64,000 nucleotides of DNA from Candidatus Omnitrophota bacterium (lineage in GTDB: Bacteria; Omnitrophota; Gorgyraeia; Tantalellales; Tantalellaceae). The DNA is taken from NCBI GenBank assembly GCA_043812935.1, contig JBDRLO010000024.1:9295-73294 (forward strand), read 5' to 3'. The position numbers and the translations under genes were made by a program. Shown here piece by piece: positions 5,753 through 60,374 of the stretch; the first letter of the stretch is position 1, and each line of letters starts with the position of its first letter. The notes under the pieces are model-generated. The model was not told where the DNA came from, did not search any database, and saw only the letters and a list, made by a program, of their open reading frames with translations.

Positions 5753-5781
5753 CGCGCTTTGTTTTTATTTAAGGAGGCCTT

Positions 5782-8992: not shown

Positions 8993-11302
8993 ATGAATTT
9001 ACGAAAGACAATAACATGTTCCATGATACTAACCGGCGCTGCCGCGATGGCATCGCAGATAGTATTTTTACGCGAATTTTTAATTGTTTTTTATGGTAAC
9101 GAAATTTCAATAGGTATTATTCTTGCCTGCTGGTTGTTGTGGGGAGCTTTCGGAAGCTGGTTTTTTGGAAGGTTTTCAGACAGGATAAAAGAAAAAATAT
9201 ATGTGTTTGCCATGTGCCAGATTGCTTTGGCACTTATTCTTCCGGCAACACTTCTTGCTATAAGACTAATAAAACCGGTGATGGGAATTGCGACAGGTGA
9301 AATAATCGGGTACGCTCCGATGTTTGTGTCGGCAGTTCTTATCCTGAGTTTTTCGTGCGCTACAATGGGGTTTATGTTCAGTCTTGCATGCCGTATGTAC
9401 CGGGACAACAGCAATGCTCCTGAAACCGCGCTTGCTCATGTTTATATAATGGAGGCGATTGGCGCATTATTGGGCGGGTTTATTGTCAGCGGTTTTATAA
9501 TTAGGTTCATGACGCCTTTAAGTATTTTGTTTTTATTTTCAGTTCTTAATGTATCCGCGTCAATTGTCTTGCGTAATTCCGCGGGAATTGTTTCACATAG
9601 AAAAATTTTAGATTACACGATAACGGTTGTTTTCTTAATAACGGTTGTGGTAATGGCTTTAGGGGGATTGCGTTTATTGCGGGAATTTTCTTTGGCGCAA
9701 TTGTGGAAAGGGTTTGATGTCCTTGAATCCAGGAATTCGATTTATGGGAACATTACAGTTACAAAAAGAGGGAGGGAAACTTCTTTTTATGAAAATGGCT
9801 TGCATTTATATACGGTTCCGGATGATTTTTCTGCTGAACAGGCTGTTCATTTTGCTCTTCTCGAAAATACCGATATCTCAAGGGTGCTTTTAATCGGCGG
9901 CGGTGTCGGAGGGTTACTAAAAGAGATTTTAAAATATCCGGTTGATAGAGTAGATTACGTGGAATTGGATTCTACTATTATTGATGAAGCCGAAAAATAT
10001 CTTGATATCGCGGATGCTTCGTTTCTGAAAGACGCAAGAGTAGCCATTATAAACGAGGACGGACGTTTTTTTGTAAAAAGGACGGATGAAAAATATGATG
10101 CCGTAATAATTAATCTGGGCGATCCGTACACAATACAGCTTAACAGGTTTTATACGGTCGGTTTTTTTAGAGAATTAAATCGTATACTTTCGGATGATGG
10201 AATAGTGTCATTTTCATTAACGTCGTCCGATAATTATATCGGGGATGAATTAAAAGATTATTTGAGTTCAATATATATCAGTGCGTCAAAAGTTTTTCCC
10301 GATGTTTTGCTTATTCCGGGTGATACGGTTTATTTTTTGCTTTCAAACAAACTGAATATTTTGACCGGAGATCCGGAAATTCTTATGACGCGAATGCGGA
10401 ATTTAGGAATTGAAGCTAAATATGTCAGAGAATATTATTTGTTTGATAAACTATCAAAAGAACGCATGCAATATGTTAAAAATGCGGTCGGACAAGATAC
10501 TGACGCAAAATTGAATGAAGATTTCAGGCCTGTTGCGTATTATTACGCAACTTTATTTTGGGGAACGCATTTTGATTCTCCGTTTTTCAGAAAATTTTTA
10601 AGAGGGGTAAAAGTTAAAAATATATGGGTGGTTACGGCAGTTGTATGTTTTTTGATTATAGTATTTAGCGTTGTTGACAGAAAAAAACATGGAAAACGTA
10701 CGGTTTTATTGTCGGTAATGACGACCGGGTTTGCGGAAATAGTTTTTCAGATTGCGGTGCTTCTGTCTTTTCAGGTGATATATGGGTATGTGTTTTATAA
10801 GTTAGGTATAATTTTAACATTTTTTATGGTTGGCCTGGCTTTTGGGGGATGGATAATTTCGAGACATATGAAACATATACAGAATTACATGAAAGTTTTT
10901 AAGTGGACGCAGGTGTGTATTTGTTTTTATCCATTAATTCTTCCACCCGCCTTTTTGTTGCTTGCCAGGTCGCAGTCAGGGGGTGTTTCTTGGATCGGAG
11001 CAAATATTGTTTTTCCGCTGCTTCCGATTATTGCCGGAACAATAGGCGGCATACAGTTTCCGCTTGCGAATAGGATTTATCTTGAAAACTCGGAAGATAT
11101 AGGAAAAGTAGCTGGATTGAGTTATGGATTAGATCTCATGGGGGCATGTTTCGGGTCGCTTTTGGCTGCCGCGTTTTTAATTCCAATATTAGGTGTTTTT
11201 CAGACTTGTTTGTTAACAGCTATTATAAATGTTTCAGTTCTTACAGCGCTTATGTTAGGCCGAAAGCCGGTTTTTGCGTTGCACGTAACACGCAACACGT
11301 AG
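8993..11302 (+). CDS. polytopic membrane protein with embedded spermidine-synthase-like aminopropyltransferase domain
   Basis: many TM segments at both ends; central SpeE-like methyltransferase-fold motifs (VLLIGGGVGG, VDYVELD, INLGDP); C-terminal 8 aa are encoded by the ACGTG repeat block. Confidence 0.65.
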   Translation: MNLRKTITCSMILTGAAAMASQIVFLREFLIVFYGNEISIGIILACWLLWGAFGSWFFGRFSDRIKEKIYVFAMCQIALALILPATLLAIRLIKPVMGIATGEIIGYAPMFVSAVLILSFSCATMGFMFSLACRMYRDNSNAPETALAHVYIMEAIGALLGGFIVSGFIIRFMTPLSILFLFSVLNVSASIVLRNSAGIVSHRKILDYTITVVFLITVVVMALGGLRLLREFSLAQLWKGFDVLESRNSIYGNITVTKRGRETSFYENGLHLYTVPDDFSAEQAVHFALLENTDISRVLLIGGGVGGLLKEILKYPVDRVDYVELDSTIIDEAEKYLDIADASFLKDARVAIINEDGRFFVKRTDEKYDAVIINLGDPYTIQLNRFYTVGFFRELNRILSDDGIVSFSLTSSDNYIGDELKDYLSSIYISASKVFPDVLLIPGDTVYFLLSNKLNILTGDPEILMTRMRNLGIEAKYVREYYLFDKLSKERMQYVKNAVGQDTDAKLNEDFRPVAYYYATLFWGTHFDSPFFRKFLRGVKVKNIWVVTAVVCFLIIVFSVVDRKKHGKRTVLLSVMTTGFAEIVFQIAVLLSFQVIYGYVFYKLGIILTFFMVGLAFGGWIISRHMKHIQNYMKVFKWTQVCICFYPLILPPAFLLLARSQSGGVSWIGANIVFPLLPIIAGTIGGIQFPLANRIYLENSEDIGKVAGLSYGLDLMGACFGSLLAAAFLIPILGVFQTCLLTAIINVSVLTALMLGRKPVFALHVTRNT

Positions 11303-20881: not shown

Positions 20882-21076
20882 ATGGCGGAATATATTTGTC
20901 CACACTGTAAGAAACCTGTTTATGATGACGAAGCGCTTTTGTGTCTTTATTGCGGGGAAAATCTTGAAAGAGGCGTTGGGACTCTTGGTAAAATGAAATA
21001 TTCTTCACATTGGATGATATTTGCCGGGATTGTTTTATTTGTGATACTTGCGTTTGTTTTGCTAATGTGTTTTTAA
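20882..21076 (+). CDS. small zinc-ribbon protein with C-terminal TM helix
   Basis: CPHC...CLYC motif then hydrophobic segment IFAGIVLFVILAFVLLMCF. Confidence 0.4.
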   Translation: MAEYICPHCKKPVYDDEALLCLYCGENLERGVGTLGKMKYSSHWMIFAGIVLFVILAFVLLMCF

Positions 21077-21086: not shown

Positions 21087-21494
21087 ATGAGGAATTGTAG
21101 TATGATTAAAAAAACGTTTATTATTGTAACTGCCGTGATAGTTTTTGCTGCATTGGTTATAGGTGGTTTAAAAGTTTATGAAGCTAAAGAAATAATGAAC
21201 ATGCAGATTGATGAAATAGATCTTTCAAATGTGCCGGACGGTGTTTATGCGGGTGAAGAAAAATATATGACTTTTGTGTGCAAAGTTAAAGTGACTGTTA
21301 AGAAAAACCAAATAGTTGATATAGAGGCTTATGAAGGGCGAGAGAGTGAATATGTTGAAAGAGCGAAAGAAGTTGCGGACAGGGTGATCGCGAATCAGTC
21401 ACTTGAAGTTGATACGGTTACAGGCGCTACTGTTACAAGTAAAGCTATCCTTAAAGCAATAGAAAACGCGTTAAAATCTTCACGCATTGACTAA
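21087..21494 (+). CDS. FMN-binding domain protein (membrane-anchored)
   Basis: N-terminal TM; C-terminal VDTVTGATVTSKAI motif of FMN_bind domain. Confidence 0.6.
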   Translation: MRNCSMIKKTFIIVTAVIVFAALVIGGLKVYEAKEIMNMQIDEIDLSNVPDGVYAGEEKYMTFVCKVKVTVKKNQIVDIEAYEGRESEYVERAKEVADRVIANQSLEVDTVTGATVTSKAILKAIENALKSSRID

Positions 21495-21581: not shown

Positions 21582-23165
21582 TTGAAAATGCGGGAGCATC
21601 TTATGAAAAAAATTGTTCTGATCGCAAGTATGATATTAATGCTGAATACGGGTGTTGAGGATGCCGTAAGTAAACAGGCTGATTTAGCGGGTATTTGGTA
21701 TCCTGGTTCTCCGGAAAAACTGAAAGCGGAAGTCGCGACGTATTTAAATAATGCTCAGGTTGGACATATTAACGGAAACATTATCGGCGCAATAGCGCCT
21801 CATGCGGGTATCAGGTTTTCCGGACCGATTGCGGCATATACTTACAGGGCTTTAGCCGGGCAAAATTTAACAAAACTGGTTATAGTTGGGTTTTCGCATA
21901 AGTACTATTTTCCTAATACCGTATCAGTTTTTTCTGACGATAGTTTTATCACACCGCTTGGAAGCATAAAAATAGATATGCCGCTTTCCGAAAAAATTAT
22001 GGCAAGTAACCCTAGTATTAAAAACTTTCCGGAAGCGTTTGCCTCAGAGAATTCAATCGAACTTCAGCTCCCGTTTATTCAAACCGTTTTTGGCGATAAT
22101 ATCCAGGTTGTACTTATATCTCTTTGCGATCAAAGCAAAGAAAATGCAGAAATGTTGGCAGACACGCTTTATAAAGTTTTAAAAGATGAAAAAAATTTTG
22201 CTGTGGTTGCGTCGACTGATATGTGCCATTATTTGTCGTATTTTGAAGCGGAAAGAAGGGATAGGAATACGATCAAAGAGATACAGGCGTTTGAACCTGA
22301 ACTTTTTTATTTAGCAAGCGCTAAAGAAGACCATAAACTTATGTGCGGCTACGGCGCAGTATACGCGGTTATGGAAACAAGCAAAAAACTTGGAGCGGAT
22401 AAGTCAATTGTTTTAAAATATGGCAATTCCGGAGATTTTGCGCCGCAGACAAAAAACAGTGTGGTTGGTTATTTGAGCGCTTTATTTATTAAAACTGCCG
22501 AAGAAGATAATACAAATGTTGTTGGAGACGAAAAAAATACAGAGATCAATTTTCCAGAAACCTCGGAAACAGAAGATGCTGTTCAGGGTAAAAAGGAGGA
22601 AATCGGCATGTTAAATGAAGCCCAAAGAAAAGAACTTTTGAAAATTGCCAGAGATTCAATAAAGCTTTATCTTGAAAAGGGTAAGCGGTTAAACGTGCAG
22701 ACGGATGATGCCCTGCTTAAAGAGAATATGGGCGCTTTTGTAACTTTGCATGAAACCGGTAGATTGCGGGGATGTATCGGAAGGATAATTGCGGCAGGCC
22801 CGCTTTATCTTGCTGTGCGGGATATGGCAATAGCCGCGGCAGTAGAGGATCCAAGATTTAGGCCGTTGAGTTTGGATGAACTGGGTAAGGTGGATATTGA
22901 AATATCTGTTTTATCACCTATGAAAAAAATAAATGATTCTGACGAAATTGTTATGGGCAAACATGGGGTAATGATAAAGGACGGGTTAAGAAGCGGAGTT
23001 TATTTGCCGCAGGTTGCCGATGAAACGGGTTGGGACAGGGAAACTTTTATGAATAGTTTGTGTGTCAATAAGGCCGGCCTGTCTCAAGATGCTTGGAAAA
23101 CAGGTTCTTGCGAAATTTATGTTTTTACGGCGGAAGTTTTTGGCGAACATAATAAACCAGAATAA
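21582..23165 (+). CDS. AmmeMemoRadiSam system fusion protein (Memo-like AmrB domain + AMMECR1 AmrA domain) with N-terminal signal-peptide-like segment
   Basis: Memo-type AGIWYPGS...IAPHAGIRFSGP motifs; C-terminal AMMECR1 GAFVTLHETGRLRGCIGRI; N-terminus MKKIVLIASMILMLNTG resembles a Sec signal peptide. Confidence 0.75.
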   Translation: MKMREHLMKKIVLIASMILMLNTGVEDAVSKQADLAGIWYPGSPEKLKAEVATYLNNAQVGHINGNIIGAIAPHAGIRFSGPIAAYTYRALAGQNLTKLVIVGFSHKYYFPNTVSVFSDDSFITPLGSIKIDMPLSEKIMASNPSIKNFPEAFASENSIELQLPFIQTVFGDNIQVVLISLCDQSKENAEMLADTLYKVLKDEKNFAVVASTDMCHYLSYFEAERRDRNTIKEIQAFEPELFYLASAKEDHKLMCGYGAVYAVMETSKKLGADKSIVLKYGNSGDFAPQTKNSVVGYLSALFIKTAEEDNTNVVGDEKNTEINFPETSETEDAVQGKKEEIGMLNEAQRKELLKIARDSIKLYLEKGKRLNVQTDDALLKENMGAFVTLHETGRLRGCIGRIIAAGPLYLAVRDMAIAAAVEDPRFRPLSLDELGKVDIEISVLSPMKKINDSDEIVMGKHGVMIKDGLRSGVYLPQVADETGWDRETFMNSLCVNKAGLSQDAWKTGSCEIYVFTAEVFGEHNKPE

Positions 23166-41397: not shown

Positions 41398-41501
41398 CAT
41401 GCGGCATTATATCCACTTAAATTGAGAATGGACTTGACTTTGCGAAATTTATATGTTATCATGTGAACAATTGTTCATATGATAACATTGGGGGAAGTAA
41501 A

Positions 41502-41828
41502 ATGCGGGCAAAGATTTTGGCTGATATAAAGAAAAGGATGAAGGGTAGAATAGTAATTGATAAATTATCCAGGACTTTTAGTGTTTTAGGAGATTCGACT
41601 AGAATAAGGATTATTTTCGCGTTATTGAGAGAAGAGCTTTGTGTCGCGGAACTCTCTCTTCTTTTGCAAATAAGCCATTCGGCGATATCGCATCAATTGA
41701 GGGCATTAAAGGATCTTGATTTGGTAAAAAACCGAAAAGAGGGGAAAAAGGTTTATTATTCTCTTAGCGATAAACACATTAAAAACCTTTTTGATGAAGG
41801 GTTGAAACATGTTCTGGAAAAAGTATAG
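41502..41828 (+). CDS. ArsR/SmtB-family metalloregulatory transcriptional regulator
   Basis: HTH pattern RIRIIFALLREELCVAELS...ISHSAISHQLRALKD; directly upstream of feoAB. Confidence 0.7.
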   Translation: MRAKILADIKKRMKGRIVIDKLSRTFSVLGDSTRIRIIFALLREELCVAELSLLLQISHSAISHQLRALKDLDLVKNRKEGKKVYYSLSDKHIKNLFDEGLKHVLEKV

Positions 41829-42050
41829 TGTTTATAAATACGAAAATGTTATTAAAATATGTTAAGGTTATGCAAAACATTATGGTTGGTTTTTTCGGCT
41901 TGCTTGTATTGAACAAAGCTGAAGATATTTGGAATCTATAATTCGTTTATAGAGATTTCGGGACTAAGCATTAGTGTTCGTTTGGGATGATAACCAGCGG
42001 GATTTATCCTCTTGCAGAACTTTTTAAATATAATAGAAATGGAGAAGGCA

Positions 42051-42284
42051 ATGGGTTCATTAAATTTAACACAGCTTAAGGTAAAGCAGCAGGCTGAAGT
42101 TTTGGAAATAGACGGCGGGCAGGTTCTTGTTCAGAGGCTTGAGTCTTTAGGCATACGAGCTGGTATTCAAATAACAAAAATTAGTTCGCATTTTTGGAGA
42201 GGTCCGGTTACGGTATTAGTCGGAAAAACAAAAATCGCTATTGGTTATGGAATGGCTAAAAAAATAAAAGTTATGGTAAAATAA
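42051..42284 (+). CDS. feoA: FeoA-family protein
   Basis: about 77 aa SH3-like FeoA pattern (LTQLKVKQQAEVLEI...GIRAG); RBS ggagaagg before the ATG at 42051. Confidence 0.7.
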   Translation: MGSLNLTQLKVKQQAEVLEIDGGQVLVQRLESLGIRAGIQITKISSHFWRGPVTVLVGKTKIAIGYGMAKKIKVMVK

Positions 42285-42285
42285 T

Positions 42286-44010
42286 ATGTCTTCGAGGGAA
42301 TCAAAAATTCTTCTTATGGGTAATCCCAATGTTGGGAAGAGCGCTATATTTTCACGCTTAACCGGCGCTAAAGTTACTATTTCAAATTATCCCGGAACAA
42401 CGGTTGGCTTAAGTCAGGGCTATATGAAGTTTCGCCCGGATGAGATGGGTCTTGTTATAGATGTTCCGGGTATCTACGGGTTAGAACCGTTGTCAAAGGC
42501 CGACGAAGTTGCCGTTGATATGTTAACGAAAGGCGACGTAATAATCAATGTTGTTGATGCAACCAATCTTGAGAGAAATCTTTTCTTAACACTTGAACTT
42601 AAAGAAAAAAATCCATTTATTATAGTTGCCCTTAATATGTGGGATGAAACCCGGCATAAGGGCATAGAAATAAATGTTGAAAAACTCGAAAAAGAATTGG
42701 GGATTTCTGTTGTTCCTGTGTGCGGTATTACCGGATTTGGGATTAAAGAACTTAGGGAAAGGCTTGCGAATCTGGAAAAAACCGAAAAAAATTTTTTAAC
42801 AAAAGATCAGAAATGGGAAGAGATAGGGCGTGTATTGGAAATTTCTCAGGTTTTGCATCACCATCATCATACTCTTCTTGAAAGATTTGAGGATATAAGC
42901 ACACGTCCGGGAACAGGGCTTCCCATAGCCGTTTTGGTCGTGTATTGTTCTTTTATGCTTATTCGGTTTATAGGGGAGGCTCTTATTCAAAATGTTTTTG
43001 AGCCGCTGTTTACAAAGATCTGGATGCCTTTTTTAGAAAGAATCAGCGTTTTAATGGGCAATGAAGGTTTTTTTCATGATGTACTCATTGGCAGACTGAT
43101 AGATGGAAACATTGATTATGGCCAGTCTTTCGGGCTTTTAAGTACCGGGTTGTATGTTCCTGTTGCAGCAGTTTTACCATATATCTTGAGTTTTTATCTA
43201 ATATTAGGCATACTTGAAGACTTGGGGTATTTGCCTCGGTTAGCAACACAGGTTGATAACCTTATGCACCGAATAGGGCTTCATGGGTACGCGATAGTTC
43301 CTATGATATTGGGGCTGGGTTGTAATGTTCCTGGAGCCATGGCTTTACGGCTTCTGGAAAACAGACGTGAAAAATTTATAGCAGCGACGCTTATGGCCGT
43401 TGCAGTACCTTGTATGGCGCAAATAGCTATGATAGTCGGATTAGTAGGCCAGCGCGGAGGACGTTATGTGGCATTAATTTTTGGAATACTTTTTTCAATT
43501 GTTGTAATTAAAGGTGTTTTAATGAACGCAATAATGCCGGGAAAAAGTCCTGAAATTTTATGGGAAATCCCGCCGTATAGGATGCCTCATCCAAAAGCTG
43601 TGATAAAGAAACTTTGGATGAGGGTCGGGGAATTTTTAAAAGAAGCTGTGCCGTATGTGCTTTTGGGCGTTTTTATTGTAAATATGCTTTATGCGTTAAA
43701 AATTTTTGATGTATTATCACGGATATTTGCGCCGATATTGACAGGAATGTGGGGGTTGCCGAAAGAAACAATATCAGCTCTTATGATGGGGTTTTTACGA
43801 AAAGATGTTGCAGTGGGTATGTTAGCTCCCCTTTCATTGACAACTAAACAACTTGTAATTACATGCACAATTTTAGCGGTTTATTTTCCGTGCATGGCGA
43901 CCTTTATAGTTATGCTTCGTGAGTTGGGGATTAAAGATATGTTAAAGTCCGCGTTTTTAATGATATTAACCGCGTTAATTGTTGGAGTATTGCTGAATAT
44001 TTTTCTCTGA
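42286..44010 (+). CDS. feoB: ferrous iron transporter FeoB (short form, 574 aa)
   Basis: N-terminal G-domain GNPNVGKS, DVPG switch, NMWD; polytopic membrane domain with gate motifs. Confidence 0.85.
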   Translation: MSSRESKILLMGNPNVGKSAIFSRLTGAKVTISNYPGTTVGLSQGYMKFRPDEMGLVIDVPGIYGLEPLSKADEVAVDMLTKGDVIINVVDATNLERNLFLTLELKEKNPFIIVALNMWDETRHKGIEINVEKLEKELGISVVPVCGITGFGIKELRERLANLEKTEKNFLTKDQKWEEIGRVLEISQVLHHHHHTLLERFEDISTRPGTGLPIAVLVVYCSFMLIRFIGEALIQNVFEPLFTKIWMPFLERISVLMGNEGFFHDVLIGRLIDGNIDYGQSFGLLSTGLYVPVAAVLPYILSFYLILGILEDLGYLPRLATQVDNLMHRIGLHGYAIVPMILGLGCNVPGAMALRLLENRREKFIAATLMAVAVPCMAQIAMIVGLVGQRGGRYVALIFGILFSIVVIKGVLMNAIMPGKSPEILWEIPPYRMPHPKAVIKKLWMRVGEFLKEAVPYVLLGVFIVNMLYALKIFDVLSRIFAPILTGMWGLPKETISALMMGFLRKDVAVGMLAPLSLTTKQLVITCTILAVYFPCMATFIVMLRELGIKDMLKSAFLMILTALIVGVLLNIFL

Positions 44011-44043
44011 TTGTCCGTAACAGTACTTTGACGGGAGCAGATT

Positions 44044-45225
44044 GTGAAAGAAAAATATATAGAAAAGCTAAATGGTTTGTGGCATAAAAAAATGTCACGC
44101 AGGGATTTTATAAAAAAAACCATTGCCGCAGGCATAACAGCAGGGACTTCTATGTATCTTTTGGATGTCGGTGCAAGGTACAAAACATATGCTGCAATTG
44201 GTGAAAAAAGAGGAATGCATGAAGCCCTTTTTTATGAGAAAATGGGGGAGGGAAGTGTTCGCTGTCTATTATGCCCCAATGAATGTATGCTCTCGAATGG
44301 TGCCAGAGGTTTTTGTCGTGTGCGCGAACCTATAAACGGAAAATTATATACATTGGTTTATGAACTTATTTGTTCCGCGCATGTTGATCCGATTGAAAAA
44401 AAACCATTATTTCATGTTTTGCCGGGCAGTAAATCTTTTTCAATTGCTACAGCCGGATGTAATTCACGATGTAAATTCTGTCAAAACTGGACAATTTCAC
44501 AACGTCCTCCCGAAGAAACAGTTAACCAGGTGTTGACTAACATGAACCTGACTTTAACCGCTAAACAAAATGACTGCGCTTCTATCGCGTATACTTATAC
44601 GGAACCCATTGTTTTTTATGAATATGTACTTGACGCCGGCAGGATCGCGAAAGAGAACGGGCTTCTTAATATTCTTGTAACGGGAGGTAAAATTAACGCG
44701 GAACCGCTAAAAAAATTATGCCAAGTAGCTTCTGCCGCTAATGTTGACTTAAAATCGTTTAATAACAAGTATATGAAAGAGGTATGCGCGCAGGATCTTG
44801 ATAATATTCTACAAACACTTACAATATTGCGGCAGCGGGGGGTTTGGGTTGAAATAACCAATTTGATAGTGCCAACGCTTAATGACAATATGGATGATAT
44901 AAGGCGCATGGTAAAATGGATTAAATCTAATCTTGGACCGGATGTTCCAATGCATTTTTCAAGGTTTTGGCCGCAGTATAAACTGCGTTCGTTATATCCG
45001 ACACCAGTTGAAACTTTGAAACAAGCCAGAGAAATGGCCATGGCAGAAGGTTTGAATTACGTTTATGTCGGGAACGTTCCGGAAGAAGATACGGAAAGCA
45101 CGATATGTCCGAATTGTAAAAATAAAGTAATAAAAAGAATAGGTTATAAGATAATTCAGAACAATGTATCTTCTAACGGCAAATGCAAATTTTGCGGACA
45201 TGAAATTGCAGGGATATGGAGTTAG
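44044..45225 (+). CDS. AmmeMemoRadiSam system radical SAM enzyme (AmrS-like) with N-terminal twin-arginine signal peptide
   Basis: CLLCPNECMLSNGARGFCRVR and radical-SAM CNSRCKFCQNW cluster; N-terminal SRRDFIKKTIAAGITAGTSMYLL matches Tat consensus S/T-R-R-x-F-L-K plus h-region. Confidence 0.75.
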   Translation: MKEKYIEKLNGLWHKKMSRRDFIKKTIAAGITAGTSMYLLDVGARYKTYAAIGEKRGMHEALFYEKMGEGSVRCLLCPNECMLSNGARGFCRVREPINGKLYTLVYELICSAHVDPIEKKPLFHVLPGSKSFSIATAGCNSRCKFCQNWTISQRPPEETVNQVLTNMNLTLTAKQNDCASIAYTYTEPIVFYEYVLDAGRIAKENGLLNILVTGGKINAEPLKKLCQVASAANVDLKSFNNKYMKEVCAQDLDNILQTLTILRQRGVWVEITNLIVPTLNDNMDDIRRMVKWIKSNLGPDVPMHFSRFWPQYKLRSLYPTPVETLKQAREMAMAEGLNYVYVGNVPEEDTESTICPNCKNKVIKRIGYKIIQNNVSSNGKCKFCGHEIAGIWS

Positions 45226-45339: not shown

Positions 45340-45801
45340 ATGGTAAGGAAGGTGTTTTTATCAGTTATGGTACTATGTGTTTTTGCTCTGGCATTTGTTC
45401 CTGTTCAGCAGGCGTTTGCGTTCGGGCACAAAGGGGGAGAGGATTACGGCAAAGATAAATCATGTTATGGCGAAGCGGGATGCGGGTTTTATAAAACCAT
45501 ACACCATGTGTTATACAAAAAGAAAGAATTGGATCTTTCTGCGGATCAGGTAAATCAGATAAAGTTGCTTGTGAAACAAATAAAAAAAGATAACATTAAT
45601 ATGGATGCCCAAATAAAAACGTTAAAAGTTGAAATTGATACCATGATGTGGGAATTTCCCTTTGAAACTGAAGGCGTAAATGATCTTGTTGCGCAGAAGT
45701 ATGACCTTAAAAAACAAAAGGCCCAACGTTTGGTAGCGGCGAACGACAAATTAAAAGCGATTTTAACAAGTGAGCAGTTAGAAAAACTTAAGACACTGTA
45801 A
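45340..45801 (+). CDS. Spy/CpxP-family periplasmic protein (LTxxQ motif)
   Basis: signal peptide, helical protein with LSADQ and LTSEQ (LTxxQ) motifs. Confidence 0.5.
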   Translation: MVRKVFLSVMVLCVFALAFVPVQQAFAFGHKGGEDYGKDKSCYGEAGCGFYKTIHHVLYKKKELDLSADQVNQIKLLVKQIKKDNINMDAQIKTLKVEIDTMMWEFPFETEGVNDLVAQKYDLKKQKAQRLVAANDKLKAILTSEQLEKLKTL

Positions 45802-45818
45802 ACATTCAAAAGTTTAAT

Positions 45819-46988
45819 ATGTCAAAAAGAGCGTTTTGGATATTGCTAATAGCCGCATTCTCATCAATGTTGGGTTTAGGTATTATATCTCCATTTTTGC
45901 CGGAATTTGCTGAGGAACACGGCGCGAACGGTTTTTGGCTCGGTATGATATTCGCCGGCTTTGGTTTTTCGCGCAGCTTTATTATGCCAATTGTTGGAAA
46001 ACTGTTTGATAAAGCGCGCGGAAAAACCATAGTAACAAGCGGATTATTGTTATATGCCGTTGTTTCGCTTTTTTACCCGGCAGCAGGTTCAATTTTTTCG
46101 TTAATTACAATACGCGTTATTCATGGGTTTGCAGCGGGCATGATTACGCCTATTGTTATGGCGTATGTTGGTGTTTTTTCAGAAAAAGGCAGGGAGTCCG
46201 TTACAACAGGCGCTCTGAATATGATGTTTTATCTTGGGCTGGCCGCAGGCCCCTTTTTAGGCGGAATACTTAACTTTTTCTTCGGGTTTAATTCCATATT
46301 TTATGTAATGGCCGGGCTGGGGTTGATTACATTTTTTATGGTATTGTTTTTTATTCCCGGAAAAATTGAGCAGAAGTTAGTTGTGGATACGGATGATAAA
46401 GGGAAAATAAAATCATTTAAGAGTCTTATTCAGAGTAATTTTATAAAGGCAGTACTTATAATTACCGCTATTATTACGTTTATGATAGTTTTGTTTTTAG
46501 CTTTAGTCCCGTCTCTTGCTGTAATCAAACATATAGATGCAATCCACATAGGAATTATCATATCTCTTGGGATATTTTTGGGAGGTATTTTGCAAATTCC
46601 TTTTGGAAAAATTGCCGATCATTTTGATAATTTTGGTAAACTGCTTATGATTGGTATAGGAACGGCTATCGGGATGTTATCACTTTTAGCAATGCCGTTA
46701 TGTCCTGATTTTACGGCAATGCTTATTGCCGGGGTTTTTATAGGGATTGGGGCCGGAGTATCAGCCCCTGCTTTGAGCGGTATTGCGGTTATCATAGGAC
46801 AAACAGCCGGTATGGGCAGCTGGATGGGGATATTTTTTTGTGTTAAAAGCCTGTCGTTTGTGATTACACCGATTATTGCAGGAATCATAATGGATTTTTT
46901 TGGAATTGATGCCGCGTTTTACACATTAGCAATCCTGGGTTTTTTCGGCGCATGGATGTTTGTGCATTATTTACGGAAAAAGAACTAA
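45819..46988 (+). CDS. MFS transporter
   Basis: 12 TM segments, MFS-type loop motif between TM2 and TM3 (FDKARGK). Confidence 0.8.
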   Translation: MSKRAFWILLIAAFSSMLGLGIISPFLPEFAEEHGANGFWLGMIFAGFGFSRSFIMPIVGKLFDKARGKTIVTSGLLLYAVVSLFYPAAGSIFSLITIRVIHGFAAGMITPIVMAYVGVFSEKGRESVTTGALNMMFYLGLAAGPFLGGILNFFFGFNSIFYVMAGLGLITFFMVLFFIPGKIEQKLVVDTDDKGKIKSFKSLIQSNFIKAVLIITAIITFMIVLFLALVPSLAVIKHIDAIHIGIIISLGIFLGGILQIPFGKIADHFDNFGKLLMIGIGTAIGMLSLLAMPLCPDFTAMLIAGVFIGIGAGVSAPALSGIAVIIGQTAGMGSWMGIFFCVKSLSFVITPIIAGIIMDFFGIDAAFYTLAILGFFGAWMFVHYLRKKN

Positions 46989-52111: not shown

Positions 52112-55100
52112 TTAGAGTGATGTAAATGCCTGGGCTTCTGCTTTATATTCAACTCGCAATTTGTCATATTCAAAGAAATCAGCATCAGGGAGCAGGAATA
52201 CTATTCGTGATTCCTCATCATAGTTTGCTATGATCGGAGGACGCTTAGTAGGCTGTAGCCCTATTGCCAGTTCTATTGTTAGGGAGAGCATTTTGACCAG
52301 CATAACCTTTTGAATTAATTGCTGGTTCCCGTCCTTACAGAATTTTATTTTTGAAGTGTTAATACTTGCAATAAACGCCCTTTTTTCTTTCGGAGTACTT
52401 TTTAAACCGCTAAACGTAGCCGCATTAATTGTTGTGTCAGAGCCCATGGCAATAATGTCTGACAGTTCTGTCGAGGTTTTTTTTGCCTTTTCCATGATTT
52501 CCGCTGCCAGATTTTCGCTGGTGCTATGTACGAAAAATACGTTATCAAGCCCCATATCCTTTAGCCGCTTTTCAAGGCGGCACATTTCCTTAGGTTTGTT
52601 TTCAGGAGGCAGAAGCTCTTTAAAAAGCGGAAAAAGCAGGTTGTGCTGAAGCTGGTCGTCTTTATTTGGTATCCAGTCTGTTTCAAACGCGACAATGAGG
52701 TTTTTATTTTGTTGTTGCTTAAGCCGAGCAAGTGCTATAAGCGAATTTATAATGCTGGCCGGTTCAAGTTCGTGCAAGTGTTTTGTAATATATTCCATAT
52801 CTTGGTCGATCTTTGCCGGAACTTTTGCAAGGTTTGCCAACTCAGCGAAATGCTCCTTTTTTTCAAGGTCTTTTATGAAGCCCATTGTTTGTAAAGTTTT
52901 TCCGATTTCCTGGCGGATTTCCTCGGAAAGGTCTTTTTTAGTAAGCGGCTGAGGGCGCAAGTCTTGAGTAAAACCGTCAATGCTTTTAAGGAAATTCCGG
53001 ATCGCGTTTGTTTTTTTTACAAGGTTTACGCGGATATTATTTGCCTCAGCTTTTGCTATGTGCAATAGCCGGATAGTTTTATCGTGTGTTTTTTTCGGAT
53101 GAGGTGCCGCGGTTTCAGGCGTTTCTGTAATTTGTAATTGTGTTGACGCGTTTTGCGCATTGTCGCCTAATTTATCTTTTTGAATGGCGGCAATAGCGCC
53201 TTTTGGGATTGGAGGATCAGTTTTTACTGGCAATTTTGTTTCTGGCGTTTCAACCATTCTTGTTTCCGGATCTTCTTCCAAGCTTGTCGTTAAAATATGT
53301 TTGAAAAAACATTTCATTGCAAAGTATAAAGCAGCTAATACCGCAATGATTAATGTTAATTTTAACGTAAAAATGCCCGGGTTATGTTCGGTTTTGAGAC
53401 ATATTTCAAAAAGATTTTGTGCCGACGCCGGGTTTTGAAAGAAATTTATTATTAATGGAACAGTTGGGATTGCCAATAGAAAAGGCAAAAGTGCCCGGAT
53501 ATTCTTTTTATCCGACGATTTATTGCCGGAGATTTTGTTTATTATTGATTTTACGAAAAATTGTATAATGTAAAACGCGATTAAAAGGAAAAATACGTAA
53601 TTAAGATAACTTATAACCGGGGAAATACGTTTTACTGTTGTAAGAAAACCGGAATAGTTTAATAATCCGGCATGTGATTGCCCTTCCCAGAAAGATACTA
53701 TTGAGAAAACAATAGCTGAAATCGTAACTAATAAAGGTAACATTGCTTTCATTGCGTTTAAGAAAGAGTTTTTCTTTCCGTTTGTTTTTAATGTTTCAGT
53801 ATCAGTTATTTTAATAACTTTTGAGTCCGCTACTGTAGAAAAGTTCTCCATTAACGAAACAGTTGTCCCGTTTTGGATTTGTTCCTTGCTCATTTTTTGA
53901 GGGTCCACCAGAAAAATCACGGTGGATTTAATAATAGGCGACATTTTGAAAACGGGCATATTCTTAAGCGCATGCGCGTTCATAATAACCATTTTTATTT
54001 TTCCGGATTGAATTGATTCAAGAAGCTTTGATTCCTGTTTTTTGTAAAGAGAACCGTCAACAAACAAAATATCTTCGTTAAATATATTTTTTTTAATTTG
54101 TGTAGCAAAGGTCATAAAACTTTTTGCAGTTGTAACATCCGGGGTTAAAACAAATTGAAGTGTTTGATTAACGCTGGTTTGGTGTTGTTTTTCTTTTTGC
54201 ATTTCGGGGACAGCGTTGAGTATGGCACTAAACTTGTCTTCAGTGTTTTTTGGAATTGAAGCTGCTCTTGTAAATATCCATATTTTACTATCTGTTTTAT
54301 AAGTGTGTTGTTTGTGTTTAGATTTATTTGACAAAACAAAGTTTTTGGCCAATAAAATAAAAGTCAGGGCTACAAGAAAAGTTGTTGCCAAGAGCCCCCA
54401 AATGGAAGGGCCTTTATTCCCTATTTTTTGGTTGGTTTCTAATATAAAATTAGCCGTTCCATTGCCCCGTAAATAGAAAACAGAAAACATTATGGGGATT
54501 ATATATTTAAGTGATGTCCAGAACGTGAAATCCTGAGTTTTTTTAGCTTCCGTGTTTGTTCTTGAGATGTTTGTATGTAGCTCCTTGAGTTTGGTCAAGG
54601 CGGAAGCTCGCCTGATAAGTATTGCACGTACGAGAATTACAAATACAGCTATGGAAAATACAATTTCGAATCCCACGATTAATTTGTTGAAAAAGGCTAC
54701 TTGGCAAGCTTTTTTTAATTCCTCTGTTAGCATTATTTGGGCAACTGGCTGTGATAATGCCCGGCTGCTTAACATAAAGATTGTTGTAGGTATAAGAAAA
54801 ACAAAAGGAACTATGCTTTTGAGGATATTTATAAGAGCGTTTTTCTTTTTCTGTGCACTGTTGAGAGTTTTTTCATCGGTCATATCCGCTATTGTAAAAT
54901 TGTTTATGTTGGAAAAACTTTTATGAGAATGAAGTGTTGCGGCTTTTTTAAGCTGGCTCCGGGTCATTGTAGGCCCGTCAACAATAAAAACGGCCAAAGA
55001 TTTAATATTAGACGATATTTTACGTTGAGGCATATCGCTGACATGGTCAGCGGCCATAATAACCCATTTTATTTCACCGGATAGAATGGATTGTAGTTTT

Positions 55101-58100
55101 TTTCGGATTTTTTCTTTGGAGGTTTTTGAGTCAATTAATAAAATATGTTTATCGGGCAGCGAGTCTCCATTCGATGTTGCCCTTAATGAGTGGTAAAAAC
55201 GTTTTGCGGTTTCAGAATCAGGGGTTAAAACAAATTGTATAGTTTGCTCAAGAGGAATTTCATATGAGCCTTCGTTTATTAAGCCACTGATAAATGTTTT
55301 AATGCGGGCATATTTATCTTTCGGCCTGTGCAGTACGGGAATTTTTTTCGATGTTTCGATGCTGTATTTTGGTGCGGCAGTAGAAATTTTTTGCGGCAGC
55401 ACCCGTTCTATGGGGGTAGTAATATGTTTTAAATGGGTAACGGTAGCCGGGTCTTTCCCCCCTCTGGTTCGAGGAATTACAGCTTTTGGTTCTTTTCTAT
55501 GCTGCAAATGAATGACTTTATCATTTTGGTCATTCGCGGGAGCAATGCGGATCGTGTTTTGGAGTTTTTTTGCCCTTTGGCAGATTCTCGTGCTAAATAC
55601 TCCTTCTTCTTTAGTTAAGATGGAATCAAATAAAGTTGCGCAATTATAAAACTTTTCAGATTTTATTTTTTGAAGGGTTTCCGCGGCTAATAACCTGGTT
55701 TCAATGTCGTTGGTTGAAACCAGAGCTGCTATTTCCAGCACGAATTCCGCTTTTTCATATTGGGTATAATAAAGATCAGGATATTTTATCCTTCCAAGAG
55801 CTGCTATGCCCAAATTTTTTATTGTGTGATTAGAAGCATTAACATCTGCCAATGCTTTTGTAAACATATCTTCTTCTGTATATTCTCCCAGTGTTTCCAA
55901 AATTTGTTCCGCGTCAGACCTGACATTAAAATTATTTTCCACTAACAACTTGCGTATATGCGGGACAAGCTCTGTTACTTTTTTTTCAAAAAGAAGTTGA
56001 TCGTCCTGAGCGATTATTTTTAAATATGTTTTCAAGGCATATTTGCGCGCGTATTCATTTGTGTTTTTATGGAATAGCGCTTTCTCTAAAATAGTAATTT
56101 TTTCAGAGGAATCGATTTCCAGAAAATCCAATGCTGTTATTGCGCCGTATTGCGAAAATTCAGGCTTTTTTGTAAATAACGTTCTTTTAATTTTAGGGAT
56201 TGCCAATTCGCCGAATTTTGCGAGTTCCCTGCTTGCGGGAAAATTATATTTAAGAGGATCGGATGGCGTTATAGTTATAGAGTGTAATAACTGTCCCAGG
56301 GCAGAAACAGCTTTTTTTCTAATATTCTTGTTGGAAGACGCGGAAAAATTACCCAATTGCTGCCAGGCATATAGTTGTTCTTCAGGAGAAGTATCTTTAT
56401 AGGTTAAATCAGCAAGATATTTTTTTATCTGTAATTGTGCTGAAAATTTCCCCTTTTTTTCCAATTTTATGGTTGTTTTGTTACGTATTTCGATATTTGA
56501 GCTTGATAGTTTTTTTCTGGTAGAGACAATAATGTAAATATATATCACGAATTCTATAAAACAAAAAATGAGAGTTAGTTCTATGAAATTTTTCAGGGTA
56601 AAGTTGTTCCGGTAAAGTCTGATACATTTTGTTAAAAATGGTATTTTTGTTTGATTAATATTTAAAGATTTATCTGCTGCATTTAGTACTACCGGAACAG
56701 CTAAAAGAAAATACAGCAAGCAGGTAATGATTTTTGATTTTTTTAAAGGTGATAATATGTCTTTTAAACTTTCAGGTTTCTTTTGTTTTTCCGCGGCTGC
56801 TGTTGTGTCTTTTTCGGCTTTTATGTTTTGCCGGGGTGTAGAATGGATAATTTTCTTTAATAATGTTTGAGCTTTTAAACAAAGCGTTTCATCAAAAATA
56901 GGGGGTTCGATGCCTATGATATCGCGCAAAAAACCGGCACAATCGAAAAATTCCGCGGCTCCAATATTTAGAAGCGCTTCTACGGCCGATAAGCGGGTTG
57001 CAGGATCATCCTTTGGATGAAGAGCGATTGTTTTTAAAATAGTACATGCTTCGTTATGAAACGTTTCAGAAAGTGGAGTATAGTTTATTTGTCCAAGTGC
57101 AGTAATTCCGGCACTTCGTGTTTCCTGGTCAGGATCTTTTATGTCTGCCAAAGCTTTATCAAAGCTATCTATGGCAGTAAGTATTTTCCAGTTATTCAAA
57201 ATTTGTTTGGCATAATGGCGTACAGGTTTATAACTATTTTTTAACTGTGAACGTATAAACGGCGTCCAATTAGTTATATTTATTTCAGAGGTCGGGGTAC
57301 GTGACATTTGCCAAATCATCCCCAAGGCATAATGCTGAACTTTTTCTTCGAGTTTTACATTACCAGTCAAAAGTATTTTTTCTAAAAATTTGAGTTTCTT
57401 GTTTTCTTCAATTTGCAAAAAGCCCAAAGCAATTATTCCGCTGTATTGCAACAGTTCGTTATTTTTTGTTAACAGTGATCGTGCAATTTCAGGAATTGCT
57501 AAATCACCGAATTTTGATATTTCCCAGGCAACAGGAAAAATGTCCTTAACATTAGAAGATGCTACATTGGTTTTGTATGCTAATATCCGTCCCAGCGCTT
57601 TTACGGCGTATTTTTTTATATCAAGGTCATCAGTTTCACTTAAGTTCGACATGTTACCAAGAGTTTTCCACGCAATTTCTTGTTTTTCTTCAGAAGTATC
57701 CCGAAACTTTAAATCTGAAAGGTATTTTTGTATTTGTAAGATTTTATTTGCGTTTTCTTCGTATAATTTTAATTTTTTTGCGGCTTTTTCGCGTCTTGCG
57801 CTGAGACTGCTTGTAAGGTTAAACACACAAATCACATGTTTCCAAATGAGCCGTGTAACTCCAATAAAAATGCTGACACTTATTAAACCGATTAAAAAAT
57901 GCTTAAGACTAAAATTGAAACGAAGGTTTCTTATAAGAGTAGTAAGGTGCCTTATCTCATTTTGGCTTATTTCAGGATATTTTTTTAGGAATTCGTCAAG
58001 GTTAGGTAGAATTAATACTGCCGTCAGTCCGGATGTCATGATTTCAGAATTCTTTATATATTTTAATAATTCCTTAAATTTACCCCAGCGTTTATTCTTA

Positions 58101-59594: not shown

Positions 59595-60374
59595 TTACGA
59601 TATATTTTTATTTTTACGACGAAGTAGTAATACTGAGAGCAGGCATAATAAACTTACAATACAAATACTGAGCATGGTTATTTGCGATAATGTCAGCCAA
59701 TGCCATATTGTAATACTGTCAATTCGCAAAAGCTCAACAAAAAAACGAAAAAAACCATACATGCAGAATGTGCCGAAAAAAATGGCGCCGGGAACATGAT
59801 TTTTTTTGTAAAAATGGCGCATAAGAAAAAATATAATTGCCAGAAAAATGATTGAATATGCCTGTGTCGGATGGCTTGGAACGATCGGCGGAGGCATGGT
59901 TTTAAAAGCAACTGCCCATGGTAGTGTTGAAGGTTTGCCATAGCAGCAGCCGTAAGACAGGCACCCTATCCTGACAAATAACATTTGAATGATAATAAAC
60001 GGTGCCGCATAGTCAGCTGTAATGAGAAAGCTTATACGTTTTTTTCGGAATTTTGTAAATATCACGAGTGCCAGGACTTCAAACGCAAACGCTCCAAGAG
60101 AAGCATACCCCACACGGCGGAACATATATTTAAAAGAAGGGTATCCTGCTTCCTGTATAGCCTGCCAATGCAAAAATGAGAATAAAACCTTTGATCCTAA
60201 AAGCCCCATGTAACCCATTAAAATACCGCATAGAAAAATACCGATGCGGCTTATGGGAAACATTTTCGGCCGGTTAAGAACCGCAAGGGCTATTGCGATT
60301 ATAGCACCCGCAAGGAGACAAACATCCCATGTAGGGACATGAAAGCTTGTCCCCTCAAATAGTGTTGGAAACAT
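59595..60374 (-). CDS. lgt: prolipoprotein diacylglyceryl transferase-like
   Basis: 7 TM; Lgt-like motifs PTQAYSIIF (compare HPTQLYE) and FRFFVELLR (compare RFxVEFFR). Confidence 0.55.
   Translation of the reverse strand: MFPTLFEGTSFHVPTWDVCLLAGAIIAIALAVLNRPKMFPISRIGIFLCGILMGYMGLLGSKVLFSFLHWQAIQEAGYPSFKYMFRRVGYASLGAFAFEVLALVIFTKFRKKRISFLITADYAAPFIIIQMLFVRIGCLSYGCCYGKPSTLPWAVAFKTMPPPIVPSHPTQAYSIIFLAIIFFLMRHFYKKNHVPGAIFFGTFCMYGFFRFFVELLRIDSITIWHWLTLSQITMLSICIVSLLCLLSVLLLRRKNKNIS

Follow-up and report, generated by a model that had tools for sequence, protein, structure and literature searches.

The amrS gene and its product

The window, i.e. the whole 64-kb stretch of DNA that was analysed, carries a gene for the radical SAM enzyme of the AmmeMemoRadiSam system, amrS. 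The following features were recognized in and around this gene.

44044..45225, + strand: amrS, AmmeMemoRadiSam system radical SAM enzyme, 393 aa including an N-terminal signal (TIGR04337, PF04055)
44033..44037, + strand: Shine-Dalgarno-like GGGAG, with a 6-nt spacer to the GTG start of amrS (sequence reading)
44263..44316, + strand: N-terminal Cys motif C74-x2-C77-x3-C81...C91, probable auxiliary cluster site (alignments)
44458..44481, + strand: radical SAM cluster motif C139-x3-C143-x2-C146 (invariant in alignments A1 and A4)
45106..45195, + strand: C-terminal Cys pairs C355-x2-C358 ... C381-x2-C384, zinc-ribbon or cluster-like (alignments)

AmrS scored 369.8 bits against TIGR04337 (cutoff 220), which upholds its identification as an AmmeMemoRadiSam radical SAM enzyme in an earlier note on this DNA, and all the strings quoted there (KKMSRRDFIKKTIAAGITAGTSMYLLDVGARYKTYAA, CLLCPNEC...GFCRVR and CNSRCKFCQNW) are present in the ORF. 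It also matched PF04055 (Radical_SAM) with 66.6 bits, and a protein from an Omnitrophota MAG at NCBI is 100% identical to it. Because the TIGR04337 match spans residues 63-392, residues 1-62 form an extension relative to the family model.

The Cys motifs were found to be invariant alike in signal-bearing and signal-less AmrS. In alignment A1, which contains Tat-bearing and signal-less members, C74, C77, C91, C355, C358 and C381 are invariant, and C81 and C384 nearly so; in alignment A4, only C358 departs slightly from invariance, C74, C77, C81, C91, C355, C381 and C384 being strictly conserved. The AF2 model of AmrS has a mean pLDDT of 91.2. The FeoAB/ArsR genes upstream of amrS and the CpxP-like and MFS genes downstream were considered as functional partners, but none of them recurs among the neighbour families conserved across 80 loci, and their adjacency to amrS is therefore probably incidental.

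The N-terminal signal

The first 50 residues of the extension have the organization of a Tat signal peptide.

44044..44193, + strand: predicted Tat signal peptide of AmrS, residues 1-50 (TIGR01409, conservation, AF2)
44095-44118, + strand: S18-R-R-D-F-I-K-K25, which follows the n-region (residues 1-17)
44119-44163, + strand: h-region, T26-L40
44164-44193, + strand: c-region, D41-A50, with R45/K47 and the predicted cleavage site T-Y-A/A

At the n/h boundary, S18-R-R-D-F-I-K-K25 meets the twin-arginine consensus S/T-R-R-x-F-L-K, and the extension matched TIGR01409 (TAT_signal_seq, NCBIfam) with 18.3-19.6 bits, the curated cutoff being 16.7, but stayed below the threshold of Pfam PF10518, so that the profile evidence is divided. 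The h-region, TIAAGITAGTSMYLL, has a KD of 1.11, compared with 2.53 in the Sec signal of the AmrB-AmrA partner; it is very weakly hydrophobic, which was counted against export. The predicted site is T-Y-A/A in the AmrS of the window and A-Y-A/A in most homologues. In the AF2 model, residues 19-48 form a detached helix and pLDDT falls below 50 at residues 45-49, as for a linker at the predicted cleavage site. The Tat-type signal proposed in the earlier note is therefore supported by SRRDFIKK, the weak h-region, the basic c-region, TYA/A and TIGR01409, export itself being inferred.

Of the 120 closest homologues, about 105 retain the extension as protein, and an alignment of 57 sequences shows no exception at R19 and F22; the extension is therefore not a chance upstream reading. 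Translation could nevertheless start at M57 (ATG at 44212) and yield an ordinary cytoplasmic AmrS, the 56 upstream codons being untranslated or translated only sometimes. In alignments, M57 coincides exactly with Met1 of signal-less homologues, no residue is commoner than Met at this position (55 of 104 scored), and AGAGGA lies just upstream of the ATG. However, AGAGGA abuts the ATG without a spacer, a poor geometry, whereas the GTG start has its own GGGAG at a good spacing and is backed by n-region conservation among homologues. In addition, more than 100 independently called homologues share the protein sequence of the upstream region, with an invariant R and F, and more distant Tat-bearing members lack this Met. 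We consider a start at M57 very improbable.

It may also be asked whether the leader is still used for export. In the clade closest to AmrS (n = 61), the twin-arginine pair is RR in 31 sequences, RK in 27 and RG or RH in 3; Bacteroidota AmrS have KR instead of RR. This relaxed constraint on the second Arg, together with a Pfam TAT_signal score (PF10518) of 16.5, below the threshold of 22.7, would suit a vestigial or regulatory leader, which binds a chaperone or partner or is a mere relic while AmrS stays cytoplasmic. Against this, single R-to-K variants of Tat signals are known to stay Tat-competent, all but 2 of the 45 sequences in the next clade (43) keep RR, and the first Arg, the Phe, the length of the h-region, the AxA site and a basic c-region persist across phyla. 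Moreover, the partners of AmrS bear real Sec or lipoprotein signals, and no gene for a NarJ/TorD-type chaperone was seen nearby in an unsystematic look. A leader without export function thus appears unlikely, if less so than a start at M57.

Tat-like N-termini were found in 57 of 87 AmrS genes (80 species-genome loci, more than 10 phyla), and in 25 of 81 AmrS genes of a control sample seeded with a signal-less query. Contrary to what the earlier note had supposed, the extension is thus not lineage-specific; it is the mark of a large subfamily with members in many phyla. An extension common to cytoplasmic orthologues would have refuted the Tat reading; this was not the case, as signal-less orthologues lack it and begin exactly at the core, their first residue being the counterpart of M57. 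Some AmrS cores have in-frame stops at their start, which were considered as sites of selenocysteine read-through, an idea that was rejected. As the upstream frames are crowded with stops of all three kinds, the genes concerned are truly short.

Five short, signal-less AmrS genes have at their stop codon a gene for a protein of about 60 aa, with MTRRKF and an h-region. To judge by its sequence, this protein is a signal supplied in trans, its role in export being inferred. At one locus (L033), the AmrS signal lies on a split ORF. tatA-tatC lie directly upstream of AmrS and abut it at locus L092, and tatA-tatC are about 2 kb from AmrS in Omnitrophota L001 and in L008. Neither tatA nor tatC was found in the 64-kb window, which was counted against export. 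Other Tat substrates, as a proxy for a working Tat pathway, were not found in the window either, but with a filter strict enough to miss amrS itself, so that their absence carries no weight.

The signals of AmrS differ from those of its partner. TIGR01409 matched 17 of 67 AmrS N-termini versus none of 32 AmrB-AmrA N-termini, and the median KD of the h-region is 1.80 for AmrS and 2.80 for AmrB-AmrA signals (p = 1e-13). This split fits the predicted export of a cofactor protein via Tat and of its cofactor-free partner via Sec or the lipoprotein route. Not all AmrS conform: in 11 to 12 members the N-terminus lacks RR and is strongly hydrophobic, of Sec/TM type. The AmrS of the only Chlamydiae MAG locus sampled (L050) is also RR-less.

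Partners with export signals and electron-transfer modules

The window encodes four other proteins related to this system.

21603..23165, + strand: amrB-amrA fusion (Memo + AMMECR1), with the Sec-type signal MKKIVLIASMILMLNTGVEDAVS/KQADLAG (TIGR04336, TIGR04335, PF01875, PF01871)
21087..21494, + strand: membrane-anchored FMN_bind protein with the flavinylation-type motif DTVTGATVTS, 87 nt upstream of amrB-amrA (PF04205, 47.1 bits, cutoff 22)
20882..21076, + strand: small zinc-ribbon and TM protein, first of the FMN_bind/amrBA cluster (ORF listing)
8993..11302, + strand: polytopic membrane protein of about 7 + 7 TM helices around a spermidine-synthase-like domain with a (dc)SAM-binding fold (PF01564, 96.5 bits)

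The signal-bearing AmrAB fusion to which the earlier note referred is real: the ORF 21582/21603..23165 (21582 is the mechanical start; the NCBI call is 520 aa) encodes Memo and AMMECR1 domains behind a Sec-type N-terminus. The product scored 233 bits against TIGR04336 and 184 bits against TIGR04335, above the curated cutoffs. Sec signals are present on nearly all of 120 AmrB-AmrA homologues, and the signals of the Memo-AMMECR1 fusions paired with signal-bearing AmrS are of Sec or lipoprotein type. The co-occurrence that the note had proposed to check across genomes was found, a signal-bearing Memo-AMMECR1 accompanying a signal-bearing AmrS in 39 of 41 cases (Fisher p = 0.006). The AmrS and AmrB-AmrA genes lie side by side in 34 of 80 related loci; in the genome of the window the system is spread over 36 kb, with both genes in the window. 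Their co-localization is not obligatory, because a signal-less AmrS lies beside an exported AmrB-AmrA at three loci (L014, L041 and L062).

The protein encoded at 8993..11302 is 34-44% identical to a family that neighbours AmrS/AmrBA in 43 of 80 loci, and topology predicts that its central SpeE-like domain faces outward. An MFS-like arrangement of 6 + 6 helices, with the SpeE-like domain in the cytoplasm, was rejected, since it breaks the positive-inside rule in the C-terminal half. No literature was found linking 'fused MFS' proteins with spermidine synthase.

Among the close relatives of AmrS there are fusions with FMN_bind, NapH-like, DsbD_2, beta-propeller or CBM domains. FMN_bind is fused to the AmrS core in P0126, P0128, P0130, P0136 and P0148, and in the best-scoring core relatives a single N-terminal helix is followed by FMN_bind, a beta-propeller or CBM_11 and finally by the rSAM core, without any other TM helix. 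Other relatives are DsbD_2 fusions or FMN_bind-NapH-like fusions. In L163/L164, AmrB-AmrA carries at its N-terminus a fused homologue of the small protein encoded at 20882..21076 (E = 1.6e-30). FMN_bind beside amrBA is not a conserved Omnitrophota trait, as it is absent at the equivalent position in L161-L164 (three related contigs); the link between AmrS and FMN_bind therefore rests on the fusions and on other loci.

The earlier note had objected to export that the reductant and SAM are cytoplasmic. The outward-facing FMN_bind, NapH-like and DsbD_2 modules fused or adjacent to AmrS partly answer the objection for the reductant, but not for SAM, whose supply remains unaccounted for.

SAM and Fe-S biogenesis are cytoplasmic, and SAM is available with reductant at the cytoplasmic face of the membrane. 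The N-terminal segment may accordingly act as a tether that holds AmrS at this face, peripherally or as an uncleaved anchor; AmrS would modify a membrane-embedded substrate, and the exported Memo-AMMECR1 and SpeE-like domain would then process it on the other side. The presumably cytoplasmic, signal-less AmrS of L014, L041 and L062 and the existence of RR-less hydrophobic N-termini are consistent with a tether, as is P0125, in which the N-terminal helix has more K+R after than before it, suggesting N-out/C-in. However, with a KD of 1.1 the h-region in the window is too polar to serve as a stable anchor, an N-in/C-out orientation is predicted from the net positive charge of the n-region, and an anchor needs neither a conserved twin-arginine consensus nor an AxA site. 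In P0130, P0136, P0121 and P0122, a single N-in helix precedes the rSAM core, which is thereby placed together with FMN_bind, the propeller or the CBM on one side of the membrane. A tether also leaves unexplained the RR mini-protein encoded in trans and the adjacency of tatAC. We regard it as unlikely, yet as the most serious of the alternatives to export.

Export of a folded enzyme does not account for the RR-less members, nor for the DsbD_2 fusions, which have no RR motif before the last helix. Dual Sec/Tat insertion, as in actinobacterial Rieske proteins, was considered for the DsbD_2 and NapH fusions and rejected for want of a convincing RR before the last TM helix.

A predicted periplasmic system and its comparison with known systems

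Radical SAM enzymes require SAM, a low-potential reductant and Fe-S assembly. To our knowledge, every characterized member works, because of these needs, in the cytoplasm or an equivalent compartment. For AmrS, the family membership, the signal features, their conservation and the cross-genome associations are observed; export, cleavage, the electron route and SAM delivery are inferred. On balance, we think it probable, with considerable room for doubt, that AmrS belongs to a Tat-exported radical SAM system that faces the periplasm.

In such a system, AmrS would fold and be loaded with its [4Fe-4S] clusters while still in the cytoplasm. S-R-R-D-F-I-K-K would be recognized, TatABC would carry AmrS across the inner membrane, and the protein would probably be cut after T-Y-A, leaving AIGEKRGMHEALFYEK... 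as the new N-terminus. Its putative periplasmic partners are first, the Sec-exported Memo-AMMECR1 fusion (21603-23165); second, the membrane-anchored FMN_bind electron carrier (21087-21494); and third, the outward-facing spermidine-synthase-like domain of the 14-TM protein (8993-11302). The likely substrate would be a cell-envelope or membrane molecule, of unknown identity. We know of nothing in the periplasm that supplies SAM or repairs Fe-S clusters; SAM might be co-exported bound to AmrS and regenerated, or delivered via the 14-TM protein.

The occurrence of exported partners and outward-facing electron carriers across many phyla suggests radical SAM chemistry outside the cytoplasm, a location from which it is not known. 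A more tentative generalization, which we hold to be quite possible, is that a broad rSAM clade works there, with a Tat signal in cis or in trans, electrons from flavinylated FMN_bind, NapH-like or DsbD_2 modules, an exported Memo-AMMECR1 and a SpeE-like domain, and a substrate in the envelope. If true, a widespread exported subfamily would overturn the cytoplasm-only view of radical SAM enzymes, and would imply AdoMet-dependent radical chemistry in the periplasm with a route that supplies or retains AdoMet there. The cell envelope would then be the first localization clue for the enigmatic Memo/AMMECR1/radical SAM system; human MEMO1 and AMMECR1 are reportedly tied to disease.

The canonical cytoplasmic AmmeMemoRadiSam system comprises the same three families (TIGR04337, TIGR04336 and TIGR04335), all above their curated cutoffs here, and the biochemical function of both versions is unknown. 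In contrast with the canonical system, AmrS here has a Tat-type signal, AmrB-AmrA are fused behind a Sec signal, and a polytopic SpeE-like protein is added together with FMN_bind, NapH-like or DsbD_2 modules. A literature search on AmmeMemoRadiSam and on radical SAM enzymes with Tat or the periplasm returned nothing relevant, a mention of signal-bearing versions in the comparative study of Burroughs et al. (2019) not being excluded.

The closest solved fold is that of PFL-activating enzyme (PDB 3cb8, 8fo0; Foldseek E = 7e-14, TM-score 0.78 on the target), also the closest characterized sequence family, with only 18-19% identity. AmrS is not a member of the glycyl-radical activating enzymes, because it scored 57.6 bits against TIGR02493 (cutoff 231.75); it scored 32.8 against TIGR02494 (cutoff 174.35). 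AmrS has extra N- and C-terminal Cys motifs compared with PFL-activating enzyme, no glycyl-radical enzyme partner was identified for it, and PFL-activating enzyme is cytoplasmic, unlike the predicted AmrS.

Extracytosolic flavinylated systems, in which FMN_bind occurs with NapH-like or DsbD partners, have been proposed to supply reductases outside the membrane with electrons that cross it (Meheust et al., 2021; PMC8238504). The same modules (PF04205, PF12801 and DsbD-type) are fused or adjacent to AmrS, except that the DsbD-type domain is PF13386 (DsbD_2) with AmrS and PF02683 in the systems described there. Memo, AMMECR1 and radical SAM enzymes are not mentioned in the main text of that paper.

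Tat-exported Fe-S proteins (hydrogenase small/large subunits, DmsAB, NrfC, Rieske) resemble AmrS in being cofactor-loaded behind an S/T-R-R-x-F-L-K leader, and a signal-less AmrS with an adjacent small RR-bearing protein recalls 'hitchhiker' export. No radical SAM enzyme was found in the literature among known Tat substrates, and, compared with these, radical SAM chemistry requires SAM besides electrons. Finally, the remnant Tat motif of NarG is a precedent for a Tat-like N-terminus without export, and bears on the RK/RG/RH drift in the closest clade; however, the NarG remnant lacks the full signal architecture, whereas the n-, h- and c-regions and the AxA site of AmrS are intact.

The AmmeMemoRadiSam enzyme and its N-terminal extension

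44044-45225, + strand: amrS ORF, 393 aa, GTG start

The earlier note had taken this ORF to encode an AmmeMemoRadiSam radical SAM enzyme (AmrS), and this was confirmed: the product matches TIGR04337 over residues 63-392 (369.8 bits, cutoff 220), it also matches Pfam Radical_SAM, and every string quoted in the note was found in the sequence. GGGAG (44033-44037) lies 6 nt upstream of the GTG start. The window (GC content 37%) can be placed in Candidatus Omnitrophota, as a MAG of this phylum contains an annotated protein with exactly the same sequence. A search of solved structures found none for any TIGR04337 member, the closest being pyruvate formate-lyase activating enzyme (identity 18-19%, target-normalised TM-score 0.78). 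Upstream of amrS (41463-44010) lie an ArsR-type regulator gene, a gene called FeoA-like from its size and place alone, without a family match, and FeoB; the downstream genes (45340-46988) encode a periplasmic protein resembling CpxP/LTXXQ and an MFS transporter. None of these flanking genes is kept beside AmrS in other genomes.

The Tat-type signal that had been proposed for residues 1-50 was also upheld at the level of sequence. Its n-region is long and basic and leads into S18-R-R-D-F-I-K-K25; the h-region (TIAAGITAGTSMYLL) is only weakly hydrophobic (Kyte-Doolittle 1.11), the c-region is basic, with R45 and K47, and the predicted cleavage site is T-Y-A/A, which is A-Y-A/A in most homologues. 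Of two signal profiles, TIGR01409 accepted the segment (18.3-19.6 bits, curated cutoff 16.7) and Pfam PF10518 did not (16.5 bits, threshold 22.7). In an AlphaFold2 model the core is confident (mean pLDDT 91.2), residues 19-48 form a single long helix, and pLDDT is below 50 at residues 45-49, at the predicted cleavage site.

Of the 120 closest homologues in the databases (identity 53-100%), about 105 share the extension, and R19 and F22 are invariant in a 57-sequence alignment. At the second Arg, the closest clade has RR 31, RK 27, RG 2 and RH 1 (n=61), the next clade has RR in 43 of 45, and Bacteroidota relatives consistently have KR. This relaxation in the closest clade and the very polar h-region of the window protein both weaken the case for export, and the leader might be vestigial; we regard this as improbable and, judged by sequence comparison, the extension is real and under selection. 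In the alignment, homologues without a signal have their Met1 exactly at M57 (codon 44212); among signal-bearing relatives, Met is more frequent here than any other residue (55 of 104 scored). Translation begun internally, at M57, would give a canonical cytoplasmic AmrS, so that dual localisation is conceivable; a start-site artefact or a dual product from M57 is nevertheless the explanation to which we give the least credit, very little indeed.

Distribution of the extension and signals of the partner proteins

A protein search with the AmrS core alone, without the signal, against 1.84 billion 50%-identity representatives gave 7670 matches, 1400 of them with E < 1e-30. Among the best 150 of the 7670, most start right at the core ("MKEALFYEK..."), at least 30 carry an RRxFL-type leader, and several show a lipobox or a hydrophobic N-terminus of another kind. 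When species-representative genomes were scanned, 80 loci were obtained, from Omnitrophota, Acidobacteriota, Bacteroidota, Ignavibacteriota, Desulfobacterota, Planctomycetota, Verrucomicrobiota, Zixibacteria, KSB1, Eisenbacteria and others, in which our own ORF and HMM pipeline classed the AmrS N-termini as 57 Tat-like, 11 Sec/TM-like, 16 without signal and 3 unclear (n=87). In a control metagenome sample, seeded on purpose with signal-less AmrS, 25 N-termini were Tat-like, 6 were Sec/TM-like and 46 had no signal (n=81). As Tat-like AmrS is frequent in both samples, the extension marks a large subfamily and not a single lineage, and the earlier idea that it is lineage-specific has to be abandoned. 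A second, divergent AmrS-like paralogue was seen head-to-head with the first in Syntrophia and other deltaproteobacterial loci:

L007 34-1099, L021, L045, L108, - strand: AmrS-like paralogue with its own RR leader (…ITRRDFIKGS…GREWRPAYEKLEGEGKL…)

The partner protein is encoded elsewhere in the window:

21603-23165: AmrB-AmrA (Memo-AMMECR1) fusion, TIGR04336 233 bits, TIGR04335 184 bits

Its N-terminus reads MKKIVLIASMILMLNTGVEDAVS/KQADLAG. Classic Sec signals are present in nearly all of the 120 closest homologues of this fusion, the AxA-type site lying immediately in front of the conserved K-x-A-D-L-A-G; in Bacteroidota, the sequences suggest lipoprotein signals, from a Cys just past the hydrophobic region. 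The co-occurrence that the earlier note had offered as a check was observed: a signal on AmrS is matched by one on the paired Memo protein in 39 of 41 cases (pooled Fisher p = 0.006), and in both exceptions the Memo ORF is cut by the contig end. Median h-region hydrophobicity is 1.80 for AmrS versus 2.80 for AmrB-AmrA (Mann-Whitney p = 1e-13), and TIGR01409 matches 17/67 AmrS N-termini versus 0/32 AmrB-AmrA N-termini (p = 0.001). Such a contrast would be expected if the Fe-S protein had to be exported in the folded state, by Tat, and its cofactor-free partner left via Sec.

Some signal-less AmrS genes adjoin exported AmrB-AmrA. At one locus (L033) a 67-aa ORF (TM helix and "...REAKYYRVIEE") abuts a short AmrS gene, which implies that the signal-bearing gene is split there, and at another (L102) a Tat-signal DUF362 protein (5057-5965) abuts a signal-less AmrS. 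In five loci a protein of about 60 aa begins exactly at the AmrS stop codon, with MTRRKF, an h-region, then a conserved RRFVRA..YPG..PL..KWSG tail:

L051 10987-11145: ~60-aa MTRRKF protein
L056 5379-5558: the same
L092 4102-4287: the same
L103 2462-2641: the same
L126 6969-7163: the same

From its layout and position, this protein looks like a candidate Tat 'escort', the signal being supplied in trans as in hitchhiker export. Three loci with signal-less AmrS beside exported AmrB-AmrA (L014, L041, L062) were left unexplained. DUF362 proteins with their own Tat-like leader recur beside AmrS systems in seven loci, including L102 and L043, where the gene (362 aa) lies between amrBA and amrS.

With E. 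coli TatA and TatC as probes, no tatA or tatC was found in the window. The order tatA, tatC, amrS, RR mini-protein is contiguous in L092 (2086-4287), and tatA-tatC lies about 2 kb from AmrS in an Omnitrophota locus, L001 (13445-13959), and in L008 (11151-12148); three occurrences in 1.8 Mb of loci are only mildly above chance. A 259-aa membrane protein of the window (59595-60374, - strand) resembles, by eye, prolipoprotein diacylglyceryl transferase (Lgt); if this is correct, the organism has a lipoprotein pathway.

Electron-transfer modules and the SpeE-like protein

The highest-scoring AmrS-core relatives are fusions.

Fusions of the radical SAM (rSAM) core
P0123, P0132: DsbD_2 + rSAM
P0126, P0128: TM + FMN_bind + Fer4_5 (NapH/NosR-like) + rSAM
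P0148: DsbD_2 + FMN_bind + Fer4_5 + rSAM
P0130: TM + FMN_bind + rSAM
P0136: TM + FMN_bind + rSAM, an inference based on the N-terminal TM helix plus the motif VDTVSGATQTS, not on a Pfam scan
P0121: signal + beta-propeller + rSAM
P0122: signal + CBM_11 + rSAM
P0125: Memo + AMMECR1 + rSAM in one protein, single N-terminal helix in front
P0141: Memo + AMMECR1 + rSAM in one protein, hydrophobic N-terminus (MKNNKFIKILIFTFLTISF...) below the TM threshold used

P0121, P0122, P0130 and P0136 have a single TM helix each, and K+R is higher before than after the helix in three of them and equal in P0136. A single helix with a K+R excess before it puts the rSAM core on the same side as the typically extracytoplasmic domains, which does not favour a tether holding AmrS at the cytoplasmic face of the membrane; such a tether would avoid the question of a SAM source outside, and we keep it as an unlikely possibility.

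Two small genes precede amrB-amrA in the window:

20882-21076, + strand: small zinc-ribbon and TM protein, preceding the FMN_bind gene
21087-21494, + strand: membrane-anchored FMN_bind protein, PF04205 47.1 bits, flavinylation-type motif DTVTGATVTS

The FMN_bind gene is separated by 87 nt from amrB-amrA downstream of it; related Omnitrophota sequences (L161-L164) have no FMN_bind at the corresponding place, and in L163/L164 a homologue of the zinc-ribbon protein forms a fusion with AmrB-AmrA. A tRNA-Ala (20610-20685) sits just before this group. DsbD_2 genes, alone or fused to FMN_bind and NapH-like modules, adjoin only the RR-less, strongly hydrophobic AmrS class (8/12 versus 0/56, p = 7e-8; L009, L013, L015, L018, L024, L027, L050, L059). 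How an Fe-S enzyme with the Sec-type signal of this class acquires its cluster is unexplained. A survey of flavinylated extracytosolic electron transfer describes FMN_bind, NapH-like and DsbD-type modules (PMC8238504); its main text does not refer to Memo, AMMECR1 or radical SAM enzymes.

8993-11302, + strand: SpeE-like polytopic membrane protein

In 43/80 loci AmrS or AmrB-AmrA has as its neighbour a membrane protein of some 740 aa whose central domain is Spermine_synth (PF01564); the order is frequently amrBA, SpeE-like gene, amrS (family M740, for example L037 1-2150, L017 and L046). The window ORF belongs to this family, with 34-44% identity to its eight best matches and a match to 33/33 members tested. 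Hydropathy and charge analysis of the family alignment favoured 7 + 7 TM helices, with a mean K+R per sequence of about 16.7 in cytoplasmic loops versus about 1.3 on the other side; a 6 + 6 topology contradicts the positive-inside rule and was rejected. By this crude method the (dc)SAM-binding-fold domain is outside; if so, two SAM-type enzymes face the periplasm, and a dedicated SAM route becomes plausible, by inference only. The protein might deliver SAM/dcSAM, or transfer an aminopropyl or methyl group to a substrate in the envelope. A 444-aa ORF (11537-12871, + strand) lies between this gene and uvrA and is transposase/integrase-like by eye (helix-turn-helix N-terminus, basic C-terminus), and the window also contains a very large ORF of 2219 aa (52112-58771, - strand).

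Export of AmrS as a working interpretation

The most economical reading, which we hold to be fairly probable in the absence of any experimental evidence, is that AmrS would be assembled in the cytoplasm, exported by Tat, and would work on an envelope molecule as its substrate, on the outer side of the inner membrane and together with AmrB-AmrA, the FMN_bind carrier and the SpeE-like protein. It is weakened because Tat genes are unverified for the source genome and the SAM source is unknown, and because RR-less AmrS and the polytopic fusions would need Fe-S insertion outside the cell or an unrecognised route.

Annotation of the window protein as an AmmeMemoRadiSam enzyme is already known. In the searchable literature we found no description of the AmrS export signal and its breadth across phyla, of the matched Sec/lipoprotein signals on its partners, of the trans-encoded RR mini-protein, or of the association with the SpeE-like protein and with FMN_bind, NapH-like and DsbD_2 modules. 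Burroughs et al. 2019 reportedly linked Memo contexts to nucleotide-base and isoprenoid modification. If export of AmrS were confirmed, radical SAM chemistry would be placed in a new setting.
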